From assembly GCA_951812735.1 (NCBI GenBank), contig OX638332.1, positions 1,469,928 through 1,533,927 of the forward strand: DNA of 64,000 bases. Direction: 5' to 3'. The notes below the pieces were generated by a model. It was not told the origin of the DNA and made no database searches. It saw only the letters and a list, made by a program, of their open reading frames with translations. The position numbers and the translations under genes were made by a program. Every line of letters starts with the position of its first letter. Within the stretch, counting starts at the first letter, position 1. Below are positions 4,421-19,358 of the stretch, in pieces. The stretch comes from Candidatus Dadabacteria bacterium. Its GTDB lineage: Bacteria; Desulfobacterota_D; UBA1144; Nemesobacterales; Nemesobacteraceae.

Positions 4421-4675
4421 TCACTTGTGAGTTACCGTGTATGGCAAAAGCGCCATGAAACGGGCTCTTTTTATTGCGATGGCCACCTTCCTCTGTTCCT
4501 GCCTTGAAAGCCCGGTGTTTCTCCTGGGCAGTATCTTCTTTCTCTCGGTTATGAACTGCGAGAGAAGTTCGGTGTCCTTGTAATCTATCTGCTTGCCTTC
4601 CTTGGCAAGGTCTCTGGGTTTTTTTCTGCGCGAGTAGAACCTTCTGCCTCCCCCGCCCATTGGTCTTCTGCTCAT
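4421..4675 (-). CDS. rpsR: 30S ribosomal protein S18
   Basis: 'RRFYSRRKK...[50 protein letters not shown]' is the S18 signature. The overlapping 182-aa ORF in another frame is rejected. Confidence 0.9.
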
Positions 4676-5250
4676 GATTCGCTGCCTCCCTCGGTCTGTT
4701 TTTCATTTTCCTGGGGTTGTTCCTGACTTTCCTCGGTCCGCTCCTCGCTTTCCTGAGCTTGCTCTTTGGCCTCCTGGGGCTGCTCCTCAACCTCCTGAGG
4801 CTGCTCTTTGGCTTCCTGGGGTTGCTCTGCGGTTGTGCTGCCTTCGGCCTGACTCTCTCGTGTGGAGGGAGGACTCTGAAAAGCGCTCTGATCCTCTGGT
4901 TCAGATGCCTGCGGAGGAGCGCTGATCGCGGCATCCGCTGGTTTCTGATCCTCGATGTATTTTACGGTCATGAACCGCAGAACGTTGTTCTTTGAGAGGT
5001 TAAAATATCTTTCTATGTCGGTTACGGCACCGGGGTCAGACGCATAAACGGCTATGTAGTAGGTGCCTCTGGTGTAGTTCTCTATTCTGTACGCAAGATC
5101 CCGTTCCGCCCATTTTTCGAATTTTATCATCTCCCCACCGTTTCCGGCCACGCTCTGCTCGACCCTGTTCTGGATCGTAAGAAGATCTTCGGGGGATATG
5201 TCCGGTCTTACGAGATAAAGCGTTTCGTACTTCGTTGGCTCAATAGCCAT
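4672..5250 (-). CDS. rpsF: 30S ribosomal protein S6 with long acidic repetitive C-terminal extension
   Basis: N-terminal '[25 protein letters not shown]...[15 protein letters not shown]' is S6. About 70 aa of E/Q/P-rich tail follow. It overlaps the rpsR start by 4 nt and there is no ssb/priB between them. Confidence 0.85.
4690..4860 (-). repeat. imperfect 18-bp coding repeats encoding (E-Q-P-Q-E-A/V-K/E-E) units in the S6 tail
   Basis: Direct DNA repeats 'ctcctg[ag]ggctgctc...' are visible. The protein tail reads '[25 protein letters not shown]'. Confidence 0.5.
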
Positions 5251-12314: not shown

Positions 12315-13790
12315 CTACCCTTGGTACCACTTCCCGGTGCTTTCCCCGGTAAAGATGTTAACGCACTTGGTCTCAAGGTAGTTGTCTATTCCTTCGGCTC
12401 CGAGTTCCTTTCCGATTCCGCTCTGTTTAAAGCCCCCGTATGGGGTTTCGGGGATTATCCCCCCGTAGGTGTTAACCCAGAGATATCCGGCCTCAACGGC
12501 CTTTGCGACTCGGAGTGCCCGGTTTATGTCCTGTGTCCAGATTCCTCCGGCAAGTCCGTACTCAACGTCGTTTGCCATCGTGATTGCCTCTTCCTCGGTC
12601 TTAAACGGCATGACGCAGACCACCGGTCCGAAAACCTCCTCGCGCGCGAGGGTAGAGCCGGGAGGGACGTCCTCCAAAACTGTGGGCGCTATGTAGTAGC
12701 CCTTCTCGAATCCCTCGGGGCGGTCTCCGCCCGCGATCACTCGCGCTCCTTCTGAGACGCCTTTTTCTATGTAGTTCATTACGCTCTCGTAGTGCTCTTT
12801 TGAGATCACGGTCCCGAATTCGGTTTCGGGGTCTTCGGGGTCCCCGATTCTTATCCTCGAGATCCTGTCTAGGTAAGCCGATAAAAACTCGTCGTATATC
12901 TCTTCGTGGAGCATGAGCCTGGTCACGGCGGTGCAGTTCTCCCCCTGATTAAAGAAACCTCCACGAAGACATGCCTCGACGGCTCCCTCGACGTTTGCGT
13001 CGGGAAAAATCATGCAAGGGGCCTTGCCGCCTAGCTCAAGCGATACCCTTTTTATCTCTCCCGCCGCCGTCCTCATGACGTTTTTTCCGACTTCCGTGGA
13101 ACCAGTAAACGCTATCTTGGCCACATCGGGGTGTTCTGTGAGCGCCTGACCGGCTACTGATCCTTCGCCGGGCACGACGTTGAGCACCCCGTCTGGAAGT
13201 CCTGCCTCTGAGCAGAGTTTCGCCACCTCGAAGATCCCGCATGAGGTAAGTTCAGCGGGTTTTATGACCACGGTGCATCCGGCAACGAGTGCGGGGGCTA
13301 TTTTCCAGAAGGAAAGAAGAAGGGGGAAATTCCACGGGATTATGTGGGCCGCTACGCCCACGGGTTCTTTTATGGTCAGGGATATCTGGTTTTCGTTTAC
13401 CTGCAGGGTTTCTCCGTTAAGACGGGTGTGAGCTCCTGAGTAATACTCAAGCGTTCTCACGGAACCGCCTATCTCAACCTCAGCGCTCTCGCGTATGGGC
13501 TTTCCCGTCTCGCGGGTGTTTACAAGGGCAATCTTATCTCTGTTGTCAGATAGTACCTGGGCGATCCGAAGAAGGTACTTGGCGCGCTCGGATGCAGGGA
13601 GACGAGACCACCCGGGAAAAGCGCGCTCGGCGGCCCGAACTGCTGCGTCGATGTCTTCTGACCCTCCCTGGGCGACCTCCGCCAGGGGTTTTTCCGTTGC
13701 GGGGTTTTCCCTTACGGAGTAAGCGCCGCTTTGCGGCTCCCTTTCCCCGCCGTCAATGAAAAGATCGCACTTTATTTCCGTACTGGCCAT
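12315..13790 (-). CDS. NAD(P)-dependent aldehyde dehydrogenase
   Basis: ALDH signatures 'FTGSTEVGKNVM', 'ELGGKAPCMIF' and the catalytic Cys context 'FFNQGENCTAVTRL'. Confidence 0.85.
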   Translation of the reverse strand: MASTEIKCDLFIDGGEREPQSGAYSVRENPATEKPLAEVAQGGSEDIDAAVRAAERAFPGWSRLPASERAKYLLRIAQVLSDNRDKIALVNTRETGKPIRESAEVEIGGSVRTLEYYSGAHTRLNGETLQVNENQISLTIKEPVGVAAHIIPWNFPLLLSFWKIAPALVAGCTVVIKPAELTSCGIFEVAKLCSEAGLPDGVLNVVPGEGSVAGQALTEHPDVAKIAFTGSTEVGKNVMRTAAGEIKRVSLELGGKAPCMIFPDANVEGAVEACLRGGFFNQGENCTAVTRLMLHEEIYDEFLSAYLDRISRIRIGDPEDPETEFGTVISKEHYESVMNYIEKGVSEGARVIAGGDRPEGFEKGYYIAPTVLEDVPPGSTLAREEVFGPVVCVMPFKTEEEAITMANDVEYGLAGGIWTQDINRALRVAKAVEAGYLWVNTYGGIIPETPYGGFKQSGIGKELGAEGIDNYLETKCVNIFTGESTGKWYQG

Positions 13791-13895
13791 AACTTGAAAA
13801 TTATAACAGACAGTTCCTTATACGTATCCGCCTAGGCACAACTCGGCATTTTGCTGCCTTGTTTCGGAGTCAGTAATAAGGTGCGTTCAAATGCC

Positions 13896-13929
13896 GAGAA
13901 AAACAAGGGCAGTTTCAAGACTGCCCTTG
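13896..13929 (-). terminator. rho-independent terminator of paralog P2
   Basis: 9-bp stem 'caagggcag/ctgcccttg'. The minus-strand transcript ends with a UUUUUCUC tract. Confidence 0.6.
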
Positions 13930-13986
13930 TTAGATCAACTGTTACCGCCAGTTTCAGAAAACTGCCGATATTGCAAGAAAGTCTCT

Positions 13987-15348
13987 CTACGCACGTCTTC
14001 TCAGGAAAACGACCGAGAGTAGGACGGACGCTACCAGAAACAGGTTAAGCAATGCGCCTTGAGACGTATTGCTGGCTCCGGCGATGGTGCACGCTCCGTC
14101 GTTGCCGTCTGCCGGCGTGCTTTCAGGATAAACCCCGGAACCGAAAATGAAGAGCCATTCACCGGGGTGTGGCACAATCTGCGCGTTTAAGTCCGCTACC
14201 TCGATGTAGCTTGTCTTGGGTGACATGCCGGGAACCATCCTATCTTCGAACCACATTGCAGTTGGTGTATCTCCCGGTTTTAACCAGTGATATTCGACTG
14301 TGGCGGAAGCTCCGACTTCTACGGCCCCTAATTTTTCGTGAAACAGTCTCGCTATGTTCCGTTCACCTTCCAACAGATTATCATTCAAGTCAAGGTTATA
14401 GCCATTTAGGTCAAAGCTGGCTCCGTTCACAAGCACTGTGGACTGTGCTGGGTCTGCGTCCATTACGAAAGCATATATGCTTCCATACTTGAAATCCTCG
14501 CTTCCGAAACAAAAAAGCCGCTCTTGAATTCTTAAGGTTATGGGGCCCTGAACAAGGGCTGCCAGCGTCTGCCTGTCGTCTAAATTACTAATTGGGTCTA
14601 GAGATGGATTTGCGGCTAGCGCTTTGACAGCTTCTTCCTGTGATATCTTTGCTACGTCTTTTTGAACCGCGTCTATAACACTTTGTACGTAAGCTTGAAG
14701 CTTCGTGTGGTCCTCCTCAACTTGCGCAGCGGTAGTGGCAAGCTCGAGACCTTCACAGCCAGGAGGAACAAAGGCGGAGTCGTCTACCGCATGACGAAGA
14801 CCTACTATGTTTGTTACAGGGCTACCAGCAACGGTTTCCTCCACTTTGGCTGCACAGGCCACCCTTTCATTGTTCGGGCCGTAATCCACGCACACCGGAG
14901 GAGCCCCAATCGCAAGATCTTCATGGTCGAGTAAAGCTTTTAAAGTAGCTGCAACCGCCGAATCCATGGCATCCGGATTAAACCTGTATCCTATTCTTAC
15001 GGGATATCCCGCGTGATTCGTTACAATATTCCTGTCCGTTATGCCTATTGCGTAGATATCACCGTGCTTATAGTCTCCGCCATCTTGCCTGATGTTTCTG
15101 GCGAATATTGTCAGTTCTCTGATCAGCGCGGCGCGGTCATCCATGTTGTCGGTTCTAACATGTTCATAGTAATCCACAATACGATTAACAAAATCCGTCA
15201 TCTTCTGTTCATTCCCAGGATCGTCCGCTACATCTTGCGCGGTTATCGTACTGTCTCCGTGAGTGCCGGACGCATCAATGGCGAATGAAAAAACAAGCCC
15301 CAGCGCGAAAAACAGGCTCAACAGTATTCCGTGTGTTTTGAATTTCAT
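13987..15348 (-). CDS. secreted tandem Cache-like domain protein P2 with C-terminal Cys-motif/TM/RRR anchor
   Basis: Signal peptide 'ILLSLFFALGLVFSFAIDA'. 'IYAFVMDADPAQSTVLVNGASFDLNGYNLD' and 'VEYHWLKPGD...KTSYIEVADL...LFIFGSGVYPE' match the sCache_2 pattern. C-terminus 'GNDGACTIAGAS...LLNLFLVASVLLSVVFLRRRA'. Confidence 0.6.
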   Translation of the reverse strand: MKFKTHGILLSLFFALGLVFSFAIDASGTHGDSTITAQDVADDPGNEQKMTDFVNRIVDYYEHVRTDNMDDRAALIRELTIFARNIRQDGGDYKHGDIYAIGITDRNIVTNHAGYPVRIGYRFNPDAMDSAVAATLKALLDHEDLAIGAPPVCVDYGPNNERVACAAKVEETVAGSPVTNIVGLRHAVDDSAFVPPGCEGLELATTAAQVEEDHTKLQAYVQSVIDAVQKDVAKISQEEAVKALAANPSLDPISNLDDRQTLAALVQGPITLRIQERLFCFGSEDFKYGSIYAFVMDADPAQSTVLVNGASFDLNGYNLDLNDNLLEGERNIARLFHEKLGAVEVGASATVEYHWLKPGDTPTAMWFEDRMVPGMSPKTSYIEVADLNAQIVPHPGEWLFIFGSGVYPESTPADGNDGACTIAGASNTSQGALLNLFLVASVLLSVVFLRRRA

Positions 15349-15939
15349 TCTGATTACTCCTCACTGTGATTTTTGTTGTACCAATATTATAGTGCAAAAT
15401 TAATACTTTTCCGCATTAAATCATAATTCAAGGTAGTTATCCCTATAACTAGTCACTTGCTCCATCATATTATTAAGGAATTATTCTTTTAGGTTGACAG
15501 ATTACCGATTGAGCATCGCAGGCTGTGAAAGCTCCATACATCCTAGGGAGGATTGTATTCTATTGCTTAACTGCTTGTCAAGTAAAGGTTAAGTTGTTTC
15601 AGGGCAATACGGAACATCCAATCCTAGCAAGTCCTCCTCTCCATTCGGGTGAATGGAACTCTCAAACTTCCCCAACATGAATTCAGCCGATGAATTGCCC
15701 GCTTCCACGGGAAGCAAAGATGTCGCTGGGACGGGATGGCTCTGGGAATTTAAAGCACTACACTGCGGGTTCAAGGAGGCGATACGGGGTTTGTAGGGCT
15801 TGTAAACTTAAATCTGTACCCCTTCCTCAATCATTAGATCCAAAAACACTTGAATATTATACAAAAAACACTAGGGAGAGTGCCGTCCTCCAGCAACCTC
15901 CCTCCCTCATCTTACTTCTGGCTGGTTATAGGGGCAGTT

Positions 15940-16095
15940 ACCAAAAAAATCTATGTGGTAAATCCCTCAGGATTCTTGGAAGAGTGTCAGGATTTTTACT
16001 GCGGGCGGGTCCTGCCTCTCGTGTTTGATTTCCGGAGTCAACAAGAGGGTCGCGCTTTGCTGTTTTCCAGATCAGGCAGACAGCGCTTTTGTTGA
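15940..16095 (+). pseudogene. remnant of nucleoside 2-deoxyribosyltransferase-like gene (N-terminal fragment only; ATG replaced by ACC)
   Basis: 'KKIYVVNPSGFLEECQDFYCGRVLPLV' is paralogous to the N-terminus of the 17814..18275 gene. The reading frame terminates after about 50 aa and the remaining space is too short for a full gene. Confidence 0.35.
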
Positions 16096-16143
16096 TTCTT
16101 TTACTTTCTTGCTTTGAAGAGGATTAAGGTGTTTCGTAATGTC

Positions 16144-16204
16144 GAAAAAAAACTGGTTATCAAGGGCGACATCAACTCGTTTGTGAAAACCGCCCTTGAT
16201 AACC
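16144..16204 (-). terminator. rho-independent terminator of paralog P3
   Basis: 14-bp stem 'ggttatcaagggcg...cgcccttgataacc', followed on the minus strand by 'aguuuuuuuuc'. Confidence 0.6.
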
Positions 16205-16250
16205 AGCTATAAGTTCCGGAAAAAGCTTCCGGAAAAATTTTTGTTCCCAC

Positions 16251-17657
16251 CTATACGCGTCTTCTCAGAAAAACAACCGAGAACAGAACGGACATTGTCA
16301 GGAACAGGTTAAGCAACGTGCTCTGAGGCATATGTCCCGTCCCCGCGATTGCGCATCCGTCACCACCATCTCCTGTTGTCATCTCCGGCATCATCTCATC
16401 CTCAGGATAAGTTCCGGAACCAAAGATGTAGAGAAAATCAGGAAACATGCTATATCTAGGGTCCAGTTTCAAGACCTCGGTTATGTTCGCAACCTCAATG
16501 TAGCTTGTCTTAGGCGAACTGCCGGGAACCGATCCCATTTCAAACCAGCCGGGAATGCCATCGTCCGGATCATCGGGGTCGTCCCAGCGGTAGCTGACGG
16601 TAGCGGATTGTCCAGCTTGATAGGTTCCACTTCCGCCTGTCAATTCGTCGCGAAACAGGCTCACTATACTATCGTCAGTCCTTCCCAATTCATCGTCATT
16701 CACTTGAAGGTCAAGGCCGTTCAGGTCGAAGTTGTTTCCGTTCATAAGTACGGTGCCGGCCATATCCGTACTCATGATGAAAGCGTATATGTTCTTATGC
16801 TTGAAGTCCCCGCTTGCAAAACAAGCGATTGTGTCGAAAACTCTTTCGAATATTTTTGTTTGAAATTCGCCTGCCGCAGCTAACCCATCTGGATCTTGCG
16901 GATTAGTAAGTAGCACAAAAGACCGAGCCAAGAGACTAGCATTATCTGGATCATTAAATGCAGCATCAGTTGAATCTACCAGTAGCTGTTGAGCAGCCCC
17001 GATAATACCTTTTACGTAATCTTTAAGCTTATCGTGGTCGTTATAAACTTGCTCAGCGGTAGTATCAAGCATGAAATTGTTGCAGGCATCGGGAAGAGCA
17101 AAAGCAGCATCGTCTTCCGCGTGATGAAGGCCTGCTATGACTGTTATAATTCCGGAAAGGCTCCTTACTTTTGTCGCGCAGGCTACATTGTCCTGACCGT
17201 CATAATTTTCTTCACAATGTGCCATGTCGACATCTGAACCGTCGATTAAAGCTTGTATGGTACTCGCAATAGGTGTCCCGGGATCCGATTTAAGCTGGTG
17301 ACCGAGTAACGATCGGGAATATATAGCGTGATTCGTTACATATCCCCTTGAGTTTAAGGCCATTGAGTACATGTTGTTTTGGGTGTTTTTATAGGGCCCT
17401 TCTTCCCTGAGCCGCCTTCCATATATTGTAATTTCCCTGTTCTGCGCATCCGGGGCGCTATCGGCAATAACCTGATCGTAGTAATCTATTATATGACCAA
17501 GAAAGGCTTCCACTTCCGCTTTACTTGTAGGGTCGACGTCTCCCGCGGCTGTGCCTGTACCGTCCCCGTGACTGGCGGACGCCTCAATGCCGAACGAAAA
17601 AACAAGCCCGAGCGCAAAAAACAGGCTCAAAACCATTCCGTATGTTCTAAGTCTCAT
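16251..17657 (-). CDS. secreted tandem Cache-like domain protein P3 with C-terminal Cys-motif/TM/RRR anchor
   Basis: Signal peptide nearly identical to P2 ('MVLSLFFALGLVFSFGIEA'). 'NIYAFIMSTDMAGTVLMNGNNFDLNGLDLQ' and 'VSYRWDDPDDPDD...KTSYIEVANI...LYIFGSGTYPE'. C-terminus 'GDGGDGCAIAGTG...LLNLFLTMSVLFSVVFLRRRV'. Confidence 0.6.
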   Translation of the reverse strand: MRLRTYGMVLSLFFALGLVFSFGIEASASHGDGTGTAAGDVDPTSKAEVEAFLGHIIDYYDQVIADSAPDAQNREITIYGRRLREEGPYKNTQNNMYSMALNSRGYVTNHAIYSRSLLGHQLKSDPGTPIASTIQALIDGSDVDMAHCEENYDGQDNVACATKVRSLSGIITVIAGLHHAEDDAAFALPDACNNFMLDTTAEQVYNDHDKLKDYVKGIIGAAQQLLVDSTDAAFNDPDNASLLARSFVLLTNPQDPDGLAAAGEFQTKIFERVFDTIACFASGDFKHKNIYAFIMSTDMAGTVLMNGNNFDLNGLDLQVNDDELGRTDDSIVSLFRDELTGGSGTYQAGQSATVSYRWDDPDDPDDGIPGWFEMGSVPGSSPKTSYIEVANITEVLKLDPRYSMFPDFLYIFGSGTYPEDEMMPEMTTGDGGDGCAIAGTGHMPQSTLLNLFLTMSVLFSVVFLRRRV

Positions 17658-17813
17658 CCTGATAATTCCTCCCGTAAAAATTTTTGTTGTATTGTAACTG
17701 CATAGTAATGTAAAATCAGTACCTCTTTGTGTTGAACCATAACTTTAAACCAAATTGCAAGAGCAAAAGCAGGTCTTGGCGCAGTATTCGCTCCGGTGCC
17801 GCTAAAGCGTAAA

Positions 17814-18275
17814 ATGAAAAAATCCATGTAGCAGGTCCGCCTGGGTTCTCGGAAGCGTGCCGGGATTTTTACTGCGGGCGGCTTCTGCCTCTTGTTAGAG
17901 AACCCGGTTTTGAGATACCAGACTCGTGGGATGCGGGCATCGAGATTCCCGTTCCCGAAGCGAAAAAAACAGTTATGGGATAGCTTCAGCATGCTCGTCG
18001 GAGAAAAAAACAGAGAGGCGATAGAATCCTCAGGCAGGATGCTCGCCGTTTTGGACGGCACTGACGTCGACAGCGGCACCGCTTCAGAGACAGGCTGCGC
18101 GTTCGCCCTCGGAAAGAAGATTCTCGGCTGCAGGGGGGATTTTCGTCTCACGGGAGATAACCCAGGCAGCACCGTTAACCTCCAGGTCAAATATTTCATA
18201 CGAAAAAGCGGCGGCGGGATAGTGCGCTCCGTTGAGGATCTGGTTGACGCGCTTTCGGATGTTTTCTCCGACTGA
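17814..18275 (+). pseudogene. nucleoside 2-deoxyribosyltransferase-like gene disrupted by two single-base indels in poly-A runs
   Basis: Three frame pieces join to 'MKKIHVAGPPGFSEACRDFYCGRLL...EAKK|QLWDSFSMLVGEKN...LAVLDGTDVDSGTASETGCAFALGKKILG...', matching the PF05014-type motif. The frame breaks lie in A6 (17817-17822) and A7 (17963-17969). Confidence 0.55.
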
Positions 18276-18497
18276 TCTGCCTATCGTCCGCGGGTGGCTT
18301 CGTTTGACAACCCCGCCCGGTTCTGTAATCTAGATTCCCCTAGACTTTAAGACTCCGAGGCAACCAAAATAGATATTCTTGACGTCGTTTCCGAAAAACT
18401 TCTGGAAAAAGAAGAAGACATAACCTTCGAGGATGCCCTCGCGCTCTCAAAACTTCCAGCCGAGCGCCTATCGGAACTTATATCGCTTGCGAGAAAG

Positions 18498-19358
18498 GTG
18501 ACTCTCAAGTACAAGGGCGACGGGGTGTTTCTTCGCTCGATAATAAGCGCACAGACCGGAAACTGTCCAGAGGACTGCTCATTCTGCTCACAGTCGGCCC
18601 ATTTCGATACCGAGGTTGAGGCTCACCCGCTAATGGCGGCGGAGAGGATACTAGGGGCCGCGAGGCAGGCTGAGAAGATGGGCGCCATGGATTTCTGCAT
18701 AGTCATAAGCGCCAAGGGCCCGACGCCCAGGATATTCAAAAAGGTTCTCGAAGCCGTTGATCTTCTCTGCGCGGAAACTAACCTCAAGGTCGGCTGCTCC
18801 CTGGGGGATCTCACGAGGGAACAGGCCTATGAGCTCAGGGACCACGGGGTGTGGAGATACAACCACAACATCGAGACCTGCAGGAGCCATTTTCCCAGCA
18901 TATGCACAACCCACAGCTACGACGACAGGCTCAAGACCGCTCTTCTGGTGAAGGAAACCGGCATGAATCTCTGCTCGGGCGGCATACTCGGCATGGGGGA
19001 GACCATGCGCCAGAGAATGGAGTTCGCTTTCGAGATAAGGGACCTTAACCCCACGTGGGTTCCGATAAATTTCCTTGACCCGAGACCCGGAACCCCGTTT
19101 GAGAACCTTGAGACCATACAGCCGCTTGAAGCCGTAAGAACCATCTCGATTTACAGGCTCGCGCTTCCGGACAAGATAATAATGACTGCAGGGGGAAGGG
19201 AAGTTACGCTTCGCGACCTCCAGGCGATGGGTCTTGTGGCGGGGGCAAACGCCATGATCCTCGGCAACTACCTTACCACTCCCGGGCGCTCGCCTCGAGA
19301 CGACCTCCGGATGCTTGATGACCTGCAGATGCCGGTCAGGAAGGAAATCCTGAACTAG
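18498..19358 (+). CDS. bioB: biotin synthase (radical SAM)
   Basis: 'TGNCPEDCSFCSQSAHF' CxxxCxxC radical-SAM motif in a BioB-like fold. The annotated GTG start has no usable RBS and leaves the N-terminus short. The in-frame region back to GTG 18294 encodes a BioB-like N-terminus. Confidence 0.85.
   Translation: MTLKYKGDGVFLRSIISAQTGNCPEDCSFCSQSAHFDTEVEAHPLMAAERILGAARQAEKMGAMDFCIVISAKGPTPRIFKKVLEAVDLLCAETNLKVGCSLGDLTREQAYELRDHGVWRYNHNIETCRSHFPSICTTHSYDDRLKTALLVKETGMNLCSGGILGMGETMRQRMEFAFEIRDLNPTWVPINFLDPRPGTPFENLETIQPLEAVRTISIYRLALPDKIIMTAGGREVTLRDLQAMGLVAGANAMILGNYLTTPGRSPRDDLRMLDDLQMPVRKEILN

Follow-up and report, generated by a model that had tools for sequence, protein, structure and literature searches.

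The window examined here, a stretch of 64,000 nucleotides (nt) from a Candidatus Dadabacteria bacterium (contig OX638332.1, positions 1,469,928 to 1,533,927), carries on its minus strand two neighbouring genes, P2 and P3, for secreted proteins of Cache fold, and on its plus strand two sequences related to nucleoside deoxyribosyltransferases (NDT), one a short fragment between the two Cache genes (copy A) and the other a full-length sequence upstream of P3 (copy B). The best explanation for the whole, to which we would give a probability of around 85%, is an old tandem duplication of the Cache gene together with the 5′ part of the adjoining NDT gene, after which the NDT gene itself became a pseudogene. 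A preliminary description of this DNA had already proposed a tandem duplication behind P2 and P3, with both transferase copies decayed; the duplication stands, and so does the decay of copy B, whereas copy A appears to be a stub left at the junction, with one boundary in nine genomes. The case is a new instance of well-known processes, that is, of ordinary gene-family evolution, unusually well resolved. Its value is that of a clean example in an uncultured phylum, in which both breakpoints are mapped, the duplication is dated relative to speciation, the contraction of the array via conserved sorting-signal sequences can be made out in one relative, and the lesions of the pseudogene are verified in independent assemblies.

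The history that we propose would have begun with a locus of the order bioA-bioB-NDT, with NDT divergent from a single Cache gene, which was followed by the genes for aldehyde dehydrogenase (Aldh) and ECH. One tandem duplication of ~1.8 kb, with one end at NDT nt ~80–100 and the other ~57 nt before the Aldh start, so that it took in the divergent promoter region and the entire Cache gene, would have left two Cache genes, the second of which had before it a further copy of the intergenic region and a non-coding stub of the NDT 5′ end. The copies would then have diverged into two orthologous lineages, P3-type and P2-type, with their signal peptides and Cys-containing tails conserved, and in some genomes recombination from tail to tail would have reduced the array to a single chimeric gene. 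In the lineage of the window, single-base changes of slippage type in two poly-A runs would have disabled NDT, which would thereafter have evolved under relaxed constraint; finally, in this strain group, the region upstream of P2 would have been rebuilt by a module of 510 nt with a strong outward promoter, the ATG of the stub being removed in the process. Of all this, the homology, the breakpoints, the frameshifts as real lesions, the phylogeny and the fold are shown by the data, and the way in which duplication and contraction came about, the activity of the promoter and the dispensability of NDT are inferences.

Two tandem units and their breakpoints

P2 (13987–15348, minus strand) is the promoter-distal copy and codes for a secreted Cache-fold protein of 453 amino acids (aa), with a signal peptide and a Cys-containing C-terminal tail (CTIAG, a hydrophobic helix and RRRA), and P3 (16251–17657, minus strand), the NDT-proximal copy, codes for a secreted protein of 468 aa with two Cache/PAS-like modules. 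The two proteins are collinear and 43% identical over their full length (BLASTP E 9e-101), the identity being far higher in the signal peptide and the C-terminal tail than elsewhere. When the segment 13000–19000 was compared with itself by sensitive self-blastn, five collinear diagonals were found, with E from 2e-10 to 2e-30, and a repeat finder returned the same families. One diagonal covers the leader and the signal peptide (15248–15380 against 17557–17691; 80.9% over 136 nt, E 1.8e-30), in agreement with the near-identical signal peptides and the conserved leader that had been noticed before; three others fall farther along the genes (14662–14816 against 16989–17146, 71.5%, E 1.9e-17; 14330–14512 against 16642–16824, 68%, E 2.2e-10; 13994–14253 against 16258–16547, 66%, E 2.8e-15). 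The fifth joins copy A to copy B (15944–16022 against 17817–17895; 79.7% over 79 nt, E 9.9e-15), so that the duplicated segment did carry transferase sequence, as had been claimed. From one unit to the other the Cache genes are offset by 2264–2327 nt and the transferase fragment by 1873 nt, and the units are adjacent, of the same orientation and homologous throughout, as in a direct tandem duplication; the likeness therefore extends well beyond the short motifs of the preliminary description.

The breakpoints come from the comparison with relatives, labelled L002, L003 and so on, which are loci from other genomes or metagenome contigs, and from two DNA profiles searched with nhmmer: profile 1, made from single-unit sequences, extends from the NDT 5′ end over the intergenic region to the Cache 5′ end, and profile 2 from the last Cache codons over the spacer to the Aldh 5′ end. 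A match to profile 1 is found upstream of every second copy, running from the Cache start across the whole intergenic region and into NDT, where its left edge, at profile positions 49–76, corresponds to NDT nt ~78–100 (L004, L007, L008, L012, L013, L017, L021, L034 and the window, in which the match is split by an insertion). On the other side, profile 2 matches the DNA downstream of the first copies only to positions 171–199 in nine genomes, which places the second breakpoint ~57 nt before the Aldh ATG; a breakpoint inside the 5′ end of the Aldh gene, suspected by eye, was rejected on this account. In the window the spacer downstream of P3 (16098–16250, minus strand) is homologous to the first ~140 nt of the spacer between P2 and the Aldh gene and matches profile 2 at positions 1–198. 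Between the end of this match, at position 198, and the end of the NDT-stub match lies the duplication junction (16029–16097), ~70 nt assignable to neither flank. The stub thus begins within ~70 nt of the end of the spacer match, and the nine genomes have in common this arrangement, in which unit 1 ends where unit 2 begins and a truncated flanking gene marks the join. Both breakpoints are therefore shared, and we read them as those of one event, with ~1.8 kb duplicated; no short repeat was identified at the breakpoints, given the age of the event.

Copy A (15943–16028, plus strand) corresponds to NDT nt 4 to ~85, is non-coding and retains the ancestral A7 run. It reads TKKIYVVNPSGFLEECQDFYCGRVLPLV... 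(KKIYVVNPSGFLEECQDFYCGRVLPLV), and it resembles intact NDT at residues 2–28 (tblastn) and profile 1 at positions 63–148 (nhmmer). It had been described as a gene that lost its ATG and stops after about 50 codons; there is indeed ACC in place of ATG and a stop after 51 codons, although the likeness to NDT ends after ~27–28 codons and the ATG went with the replacement of upstream DNA by the 510-nt module. The same stub with the same boundary is present in eight further genomes (the eight relatives listed above), and in the genomes compared no NDT sequence beyond ~codon 43 lies between the paralogues. The stubs have stops and frameshifts and are without codon periodicity, and a small open reading frame (ORF) in the stub was considered and rejected, with stops or frameshifts in most genomes and the ATG kept in only two. 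One of these stubs, upstream of the second copy in L021 (6765–7091), keeps its ATG and shows the same loss from A7 to A6 as copy B of the window (ATGAAAAAATCC), which would illustrate recurrent slippage at this run.

With these data copy A can be set against the earlier proposal, in which complete units of Cache gene and NDT would have been duplicated, copy A being what remains of a full-length second NDT after progressive decay. That copy A is non-coding and has no ATG would be consistent with such decay, and in L008, L012 and L034 the stub reaches slightly further, to NDT nt ~100–130, so that some trimming took place after the event. Nevertheless, nine genomes have essentially one stub boundary and none has NDT beyond ~codon 43, the DNA beyond the stub has its homologue in the spacer that follows the last Cache gene, which is what a direct junction would give, and in the window the stub ATG was removed by replacement and not by point decay. 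The duplication of complete units is thus unlikely; copy A, having a boundary common to nine genomes and a far side homologous to the downstream spacer of the last Cache gene, was probably never a whole gene but the junction stub of one old tandem duplication.

As for the age of the event, a neighbour-joining tree of the Cache genes, midpoint-rooted, divides into a P3-type and a P2-type clade, each with one gene from the window, L004, L008 and L013; in these three relatives the first copies are most like P3 and the second copies most like P2, and P2 itself groups with the second copies of L004, L008, L013 and L021. The synonymous distance (dS) is ~0.97 between P2 and P3, against 0.2–0.6 between orthologues. 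On both grounds, the tree and the distances, the duplication is old and predates the divergence of the species compared.

An intact single-copy arrangement, for which a search in related genomes had been suggested, does exist (L002/L003 and L014), although it is not the ancestral one to judge by the tree and by the structure of L002. The single Cache gene of L002, with NDT intact beside it, shares 85% identity with P3 and in the tree sits within the P3-type clade. Its 3′ region (L002 9025–9625, aligned with window 16051–16650 and 13787–14386) is a chimera of which the body is P3-type and the tail, terminator and spacer are P2-type: the body tracks P3 at 88–94% DNA identity, and from within the C-terminal tail onward the sequence tracks P2, again at 88–94%, including the region of the P2 intrinsic-terminator hairpin (13902–13931, minus strand; an inverted repeat in the self-blastn comparison, then a T run on the minus strand). 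The chimera would therefore have arisen by recombination between the conserved tail sequences, with loss of the stub and of the P2 body, and the tree and the chimeric 3′ end show the single-copy relatives with intact NDT to be secondary contractions. Other relatives have kept one or the other type, P3-type in L014 and L011 and P2-type in L019. An 'intact single-copy' relative is thus not automatically the ancestral state.

Along P3, compared with its counterpart in L002 (16251–17657 against L002 8019–9425), dS is mosaic, ~0.03–0.13 in most windows of 60 codons and 0.63–0.73 in codons 300–360 and 420–480; this mosaic, together with a high dS in NDT to which we return below, suggests recombination with more distant alleles.

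The inactivated NDT gene

Copy B (17814–18275, plus strand), studied by three-frame translation and by alignment with four intact orthologues, has its ATG at 17814–17816 and is separated from P3 by the divergent intergenic region (17658–17813), which aligns with L002, L007 and L014 and is the ancestral form of the duplicated upstream region. It had been described as full length and broken twice, and both points are confirmed: it reads as a protein of 153–154 aa only with two frame changes (frame 1 to 3 to 1), and the frame-corrected sequence matches PF05014 across both shifts (residues 4–124, E 6.2e-12, 46.1 bits against a cutoff of 28.8). The first lesion is the loss of one A from the A7 run that follows the ATG (17817–22, now A6), relative to L002, L007, L014 and L021, and leads to a TAG at codon 6 (17829–31); the second, 146 nt downstream, is the gain of one A in what is now an A7 run at 17963–69, GCG-[CG]A[GA]AA having become GCGAAAAAAA. 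The lesions compensate, so that the ATG and the last 100 codons share a frame, while the frame of the middle segment is without a start codon; there is no translatable full-length ORF, translation from the ATG not passing codon 5. On the opposite strand, an ORF of 181 aa (17654–18199, minus strand) runs antisense to the pseudogene and overlaps the start codon of P3; it is of low complexity and was judged spurious.

Long-read consensus errors concentrate in homopolymer runs, and a hifiasm-type assembly implies PacBio HiFi reads. The window contig, 1.68 Mb long, has a hifiasm-style name (ERZ18545484:ptg000997l) and both shifts sit in A6/A7 runs, from which it might be supposed that the frameshifts are errors of the assembly and that NDT is really intact. 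Two independent assemblies reject this: the run lengths are identical in L047 (ERZ23495228, a scaffold, 99.35% identical to window 15300–18520) and L048 (ERZ6126427, a SPAdes-style NODE contig, 99.35% identical to window 15300–18159), which are from other samples and show zero gaps over 2.9–3.2 kb. Moreover, gene prediction made independently on L047 finds no more than a fragment of 94 aa, and the frame-corrected copy B has a dN/dS (pairwise Nei-Gojobori estimate) of 0.19–0.22 against the intact genes, about double the 0.08–0.12 found among the intact genes at similar dS, with three conserved Tyr codons changed to Cys. The probability of an artefact is therefore practically negligible, and poly-A frameshifts in HiFi metagenome contigs should not be taken automatically as such.

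Another way of rescuing the gene would be to suppose that copy B is still expressed at a low level through polymerase or ribosome slippage (−1 then +1), or that the runs are a phase-variation switch. Polymerase slippage does rescue poly-A frameshifts in insect endosymbionts; the two changes in copy B compensate and leave the ATG and the last 100 codons in one frame, and all three segments still read as NDT, with 75–80% amino-acid identity to the intact orthologues. However, two independent slippage events on runs as short as A6 and A7 would give a very low yield, all three samples are fixed for identical run lengths, with no sign of switching, constraint on copy B is relaxed, and NDT has been deleted outright in many relatives. 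We regard this possibility as very improbable. Copy B has, in summary, a broken frame that is not an assembly error and a relaxed constraint, the two marks of a pseudogene; it is a genuine one and has long been so, its inactivation being older than the 0.65% divergence of the three sampled strains.

The loss of the companion gene, proposed from the window alone, extends to the whole clade. NDT is intact (153 aa, 87–100% mutual identity) in L002/L003, L007 (=L009), L014 and L021, is degenerate in L008 and L012 and survives only as pieces in L016, L017, L019, L025, L034 and L037, and in L011, L013, L018, L020 and L022 it is undetectable. Degenerate or absent in so many relatives, it is being lost time after time across the clade, in which it seems to be dispensable. 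All four intact-NDT genomes have only one intact Cache gene, but with a Fisher's exact P of ~0.1, calculated by hand on genomes that are not phylogenetically independent, we claim no link between intact NDT and the number of Cache copies.

Two of the relatives deserve mention for their rearrangements. In L025 (6609–8107) NDT codon 32 almost adjoins residue 71 of a P2-type Cache gene, which reads as one deletion, by which the P3-type copy would have been lost entire and, on either side of it, the NDT 5′ end with the divergent promoter and the stub with the 5′ end of P2. In L004 a fragment of a DUF772 (IS5-like transposase) gene, at 388–936, sits between NDT and the P3-type gene; this locus belongs to the metagenome-assembled genome (MAG) CAYSDX01, which carries the NCBI label 'uncultured Spirochaetia' and whose locus is clearly syntenic with Dadabacteria genomes.

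The stub and the 510-nt module upstream of P2

The stub has changed slowly for a sequence that does not code. Between species, in the nine genomes, stubs have a mean Jukes-Cantor (JC) distance of 0.34, compared with 0.62 in the promoter-proximal intergenic DNA; in 33 of 36 pairs, which are not independent, it is the stub that is slower, and the synonymous distances of the flanking genes are 0.56–0.64. Compared with the resident NDT 5′ end of the same genome, the stub is 75–80% identical where NDT is or was recently functional, and 57–63% where it is degenerate. Its conserved core is CGGGATTTTTAC..GGCGG..TCTGCCTC.

Ongoing gene conversion between the units, in place of descent plus constraint, would be one explanation for the similarity of their 5′ ends, that is, of stub, leader and signal peptide. 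In its favour, the 5′ end (80–83% identity) and the tail are much more alike than the gene bodies (66–71%), and recombination between paralogue tails does occur, as in L002, and the dS of P3 between the window and L002 is mosaic. However, second-copy stubs and leaders share derived bases with the second copies of other species and not with their own first copy, the mean identity of stubs is 73% for A with A and 69% for A with B, and the signal peptide and tail are near-invariant throughout the family, as expected of sorting signals under selection. Recent conversion is made improbable by the derived bases that second-copy stubs have in common across species, and as the main cause of the 5′ similarity ongoing conversion is not supported by the stub and leader alignments and identities; we would hold it to be unlikely, and prefer descent plus constraint.

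Several points weigh against the history proposed, or call for something to be added to it. The two-clade split is that of a midpoint-rooted neighbour-joining tree without bootstrap support. The NDT dS between the window and L002 is 0.57, above the 0.18–0.35 of the flanking genes, which is a sign of recombination in the region and makes the timing less certain. It is conceivable that a second NDT, once complete, was deleted early, before the species radiation. The 75–80% identity between stub and NDT 5′ end in the window, L004, L007 and L021 is more than would be expected under neutrality from a P2–P3 dS of ~0.97; and the rate of the stub, about half that of the adjacent intergenic DNA, calls for some constraint or earlier gene conversion besides the duplication.

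Possible reasons for the slow evolution of the stub are a cis-acting role, an older conversion, or a bias of the alignment toward the better-defined part of the profile. The first of these could be read from a rate only about half as high as in adjacent intergenic DNA or at synonymous sites of the flanking genes, in a sequence with neither reading frame nor codon periodicity: the stub may long have been retained as a cis-acting element of the downstream Cache gene, and the same element, inside the 5′ coding region of intact NDT, may serve the divergent Cache gene. We offer this reading tentatively, as a possibility to which we would give less than even weight.

Upstream of P2 itself, the leader (15349–15432, minus strand), a homologue of the P3 leader, contains the conserved 5′ untranslated region, with a ribosome-binding site of GGAGGA type as well as a TATAAT-like box, and matches profile 1 at positions 217–392. 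Between the leader and the stub, profile 1 shows a gap that corresponds to the non-coding 510-nt module (15433–15942), which stands in place of 68 nt of ancestral intergenic DNA, among them the stub ATG and the old −35 region. It contains a predicted near-consensus sigma-70 promoter directed toward P2 (TTGACA-N18-TACAAT, 15581–15552, minus strand; 11 of 12 consensus matches), whose hexamers are conserved in L034, where a sequence 71% identical to the module over 461 nt (4621–5102) lies upstream of another Cache-family gene. Parts of it are found upstream of Cache-family genes in L033 (8504–8620) and L015 (6777–6933), and ~400 nt upstream of an unrelated lipoprotein-like ORF in the metagenome contig L049 (259–662), the single contig returned by a metagenome scan with a 24-mer module pattern; full or partial copies thus stand upstream of five different genes, for secreted proteins, in five contigs. 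Of the other features of a MITE or mobile promoter module, the terminal inverted repeats are imperfect (24 nt, 75% complementary), and as 68 nt were replaced no target-site duplication would be expected. A coding test (tblastx against the L034 homologue and substitution periodicity) gave stops in every frame and no periodicity, folding of both strands gave z-scores of −0.24 and −1.31, neither significant, and an Rfam scan of 13000–19000 on both strands (E <= 1), which covers the leader and the module, gave no match. Taken together, the 510-nt stretch would be a portable, promoter-bearing upstream module.

Downstream of P3, the spacer contains a terminator with a 16-bp perfect stem (16153–16168/16191–16206, minus strand) followed by T8 on the minus strand.

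The Cache-fold family and comparison with known systems

The Cache family may matter more than the duplication. A protein search with P3 gave 199 homologues at E <= 1e-3; the few with a name are called 'hypothetical protein, Candidatus Dadabacteria bacterium', and a precomputed Pfam domain was found for none of the 120 listed out of the 199. The species-representative genomes with the family are Dadabacteria MAGs of 1.5–2.4 Mb, many of them placed under Thermodesulfobacteriota in NCBI, and the gene order bioA-bioB-[NDT]-Cache-(Cache)-Aldh-ECH is kept in ~20 of these genomes. A distant third paralogue, P1 (10185–11237, minus strand; 350 aa), lies in the window outside the tandem unit, with the same Cys-containing tail, a weak sCache_2 match and a synteny conserved in L002 and L014; it has a DDMDD acidic repeat and 9 extra residues beyond the RRR cluster. 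There are at least 6 copies of the family in OZ242002, where they are dispersed and two (L026, L027) are identical, and in the genome OZ219814 six Cache-family copies stand in tandem (L044 4164–12234), with 25–33% identity to P1–P3. The diversification of the Cache genes that had been proposed agrees with their dN/dS of 0.34–0.49, compared with 0.01–0.10 for bioB, Aldh and ECH, and in the family this ratio is 5–20 times that of neighbouring genes. The P1/P2/P3 family is specific to Dadabacteria, multi-copy and fast-evolving.

The assignment to the Cache fold comes from structure and not from sequence profiles. Pfam and NCBIfam scans of whole P2 and P3 gave no meaningful match, so that by sequence profile neither belongs to the Cache superfamily; P1 scores 26.6 bits for sCache_2 against a Pfam cutoff of 25, and 18 of 92 family members match dCache_2 weakly (best E 1.4e-4). 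The predicted structure, a long helix at the N-terminus and then an alpha/beta fold of PAS type, can be superposed on solved Cache sensor domains and confirms an sCache_2-like fold. The proteins consist of a signal peptide, two Cache/PAS-like modules, a linker of acidic repeats, variable among members (MMPEE or GDD units), and a C-terminal sorting tail. In 92 sequences the tail is G-C-[AT]-I-A-G, a hydrophobic helix and RRR, with C435 near-invariant and LLNLFL...FLRRR conserved.

In their fold, P2 and P3 resemble the solved sCache_2 and dCache sensors of chemoreceptors and histidine kinases (PDB 4K08, 4EXO/2QHK and 3UB6, TlpB), from which they differ in having no transmitter module (MCP, kinase or GGDEF). 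With a signal peptide and a sorting tail, and no transmitter, the modelled protein has more the look of a binding protein anchored at the surface than of a transducer. Secreted, without transmitter, present in many copies and evolving fast, the family would therefore be a candidate for surface ligand binding or for interaction with a host in Dadabacteria; the host association of the lineage is no more than suggested, by a sponge-metagenome paper (PMC12648040).

The tail itself calls to mind the tripartite Cys-containing C-terminal sorting signals known as MYXO-CTERM, which CPBP/Rce1-like myxosortases process (Haft, 2023, doi 10.1101/2023.06.07.544157; PMC11980579). All three parts, the Cys motif, the transmembrane or hydrophobic helix and the Arg cluster, are present in the tails of the family. 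In contrast, the P2 tail scores 14.3 bits for TIGR03901 (E 0.04), below the cutoff of 20 bits, the P3 and P1 tails do not match that model, and a scan of nine window ORFs, to which the search was confined, turned up no CPBP protease. Caught by no current model, the tail could by its sequence be an undescribed subtype of sorting signal.

The NDT sequences are like the known family in that the intact 153-aa orthologues match PF05014 and that of L002 matches solved NDTs (8PQP, 8QC0, 2A0K; E 8e-13, residues 2–125), while no NCBIfam model matches; unlike the known enzymes, the copy of the window is interrupted by two frameshifts, and the Dadabacteria members are assigned to NDT by their sequence. 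As a pseudogene, copy B recalls those formed by homopolymer slippage in reduced or host-associated genomes, both lesions being changes of ±1 in runs of six or seven A and the same gene having been lost repeatedly in relatives with small genomes (1.5–2.4 Mb), with the difference that here there is no evidence for rescue by slippage. Finally, the locus as a whole is like a tandem segmental duplication produced by unequal recombination, by which the duplication and the contractions would both have come about: two collinear units, a partial neighbouring gene exactly at the junction, breakpoints common across species and, in L002, a chimeric gene. It departs from the typical examples in its junction stub, which is unusually well preserved for non-coding DNA.

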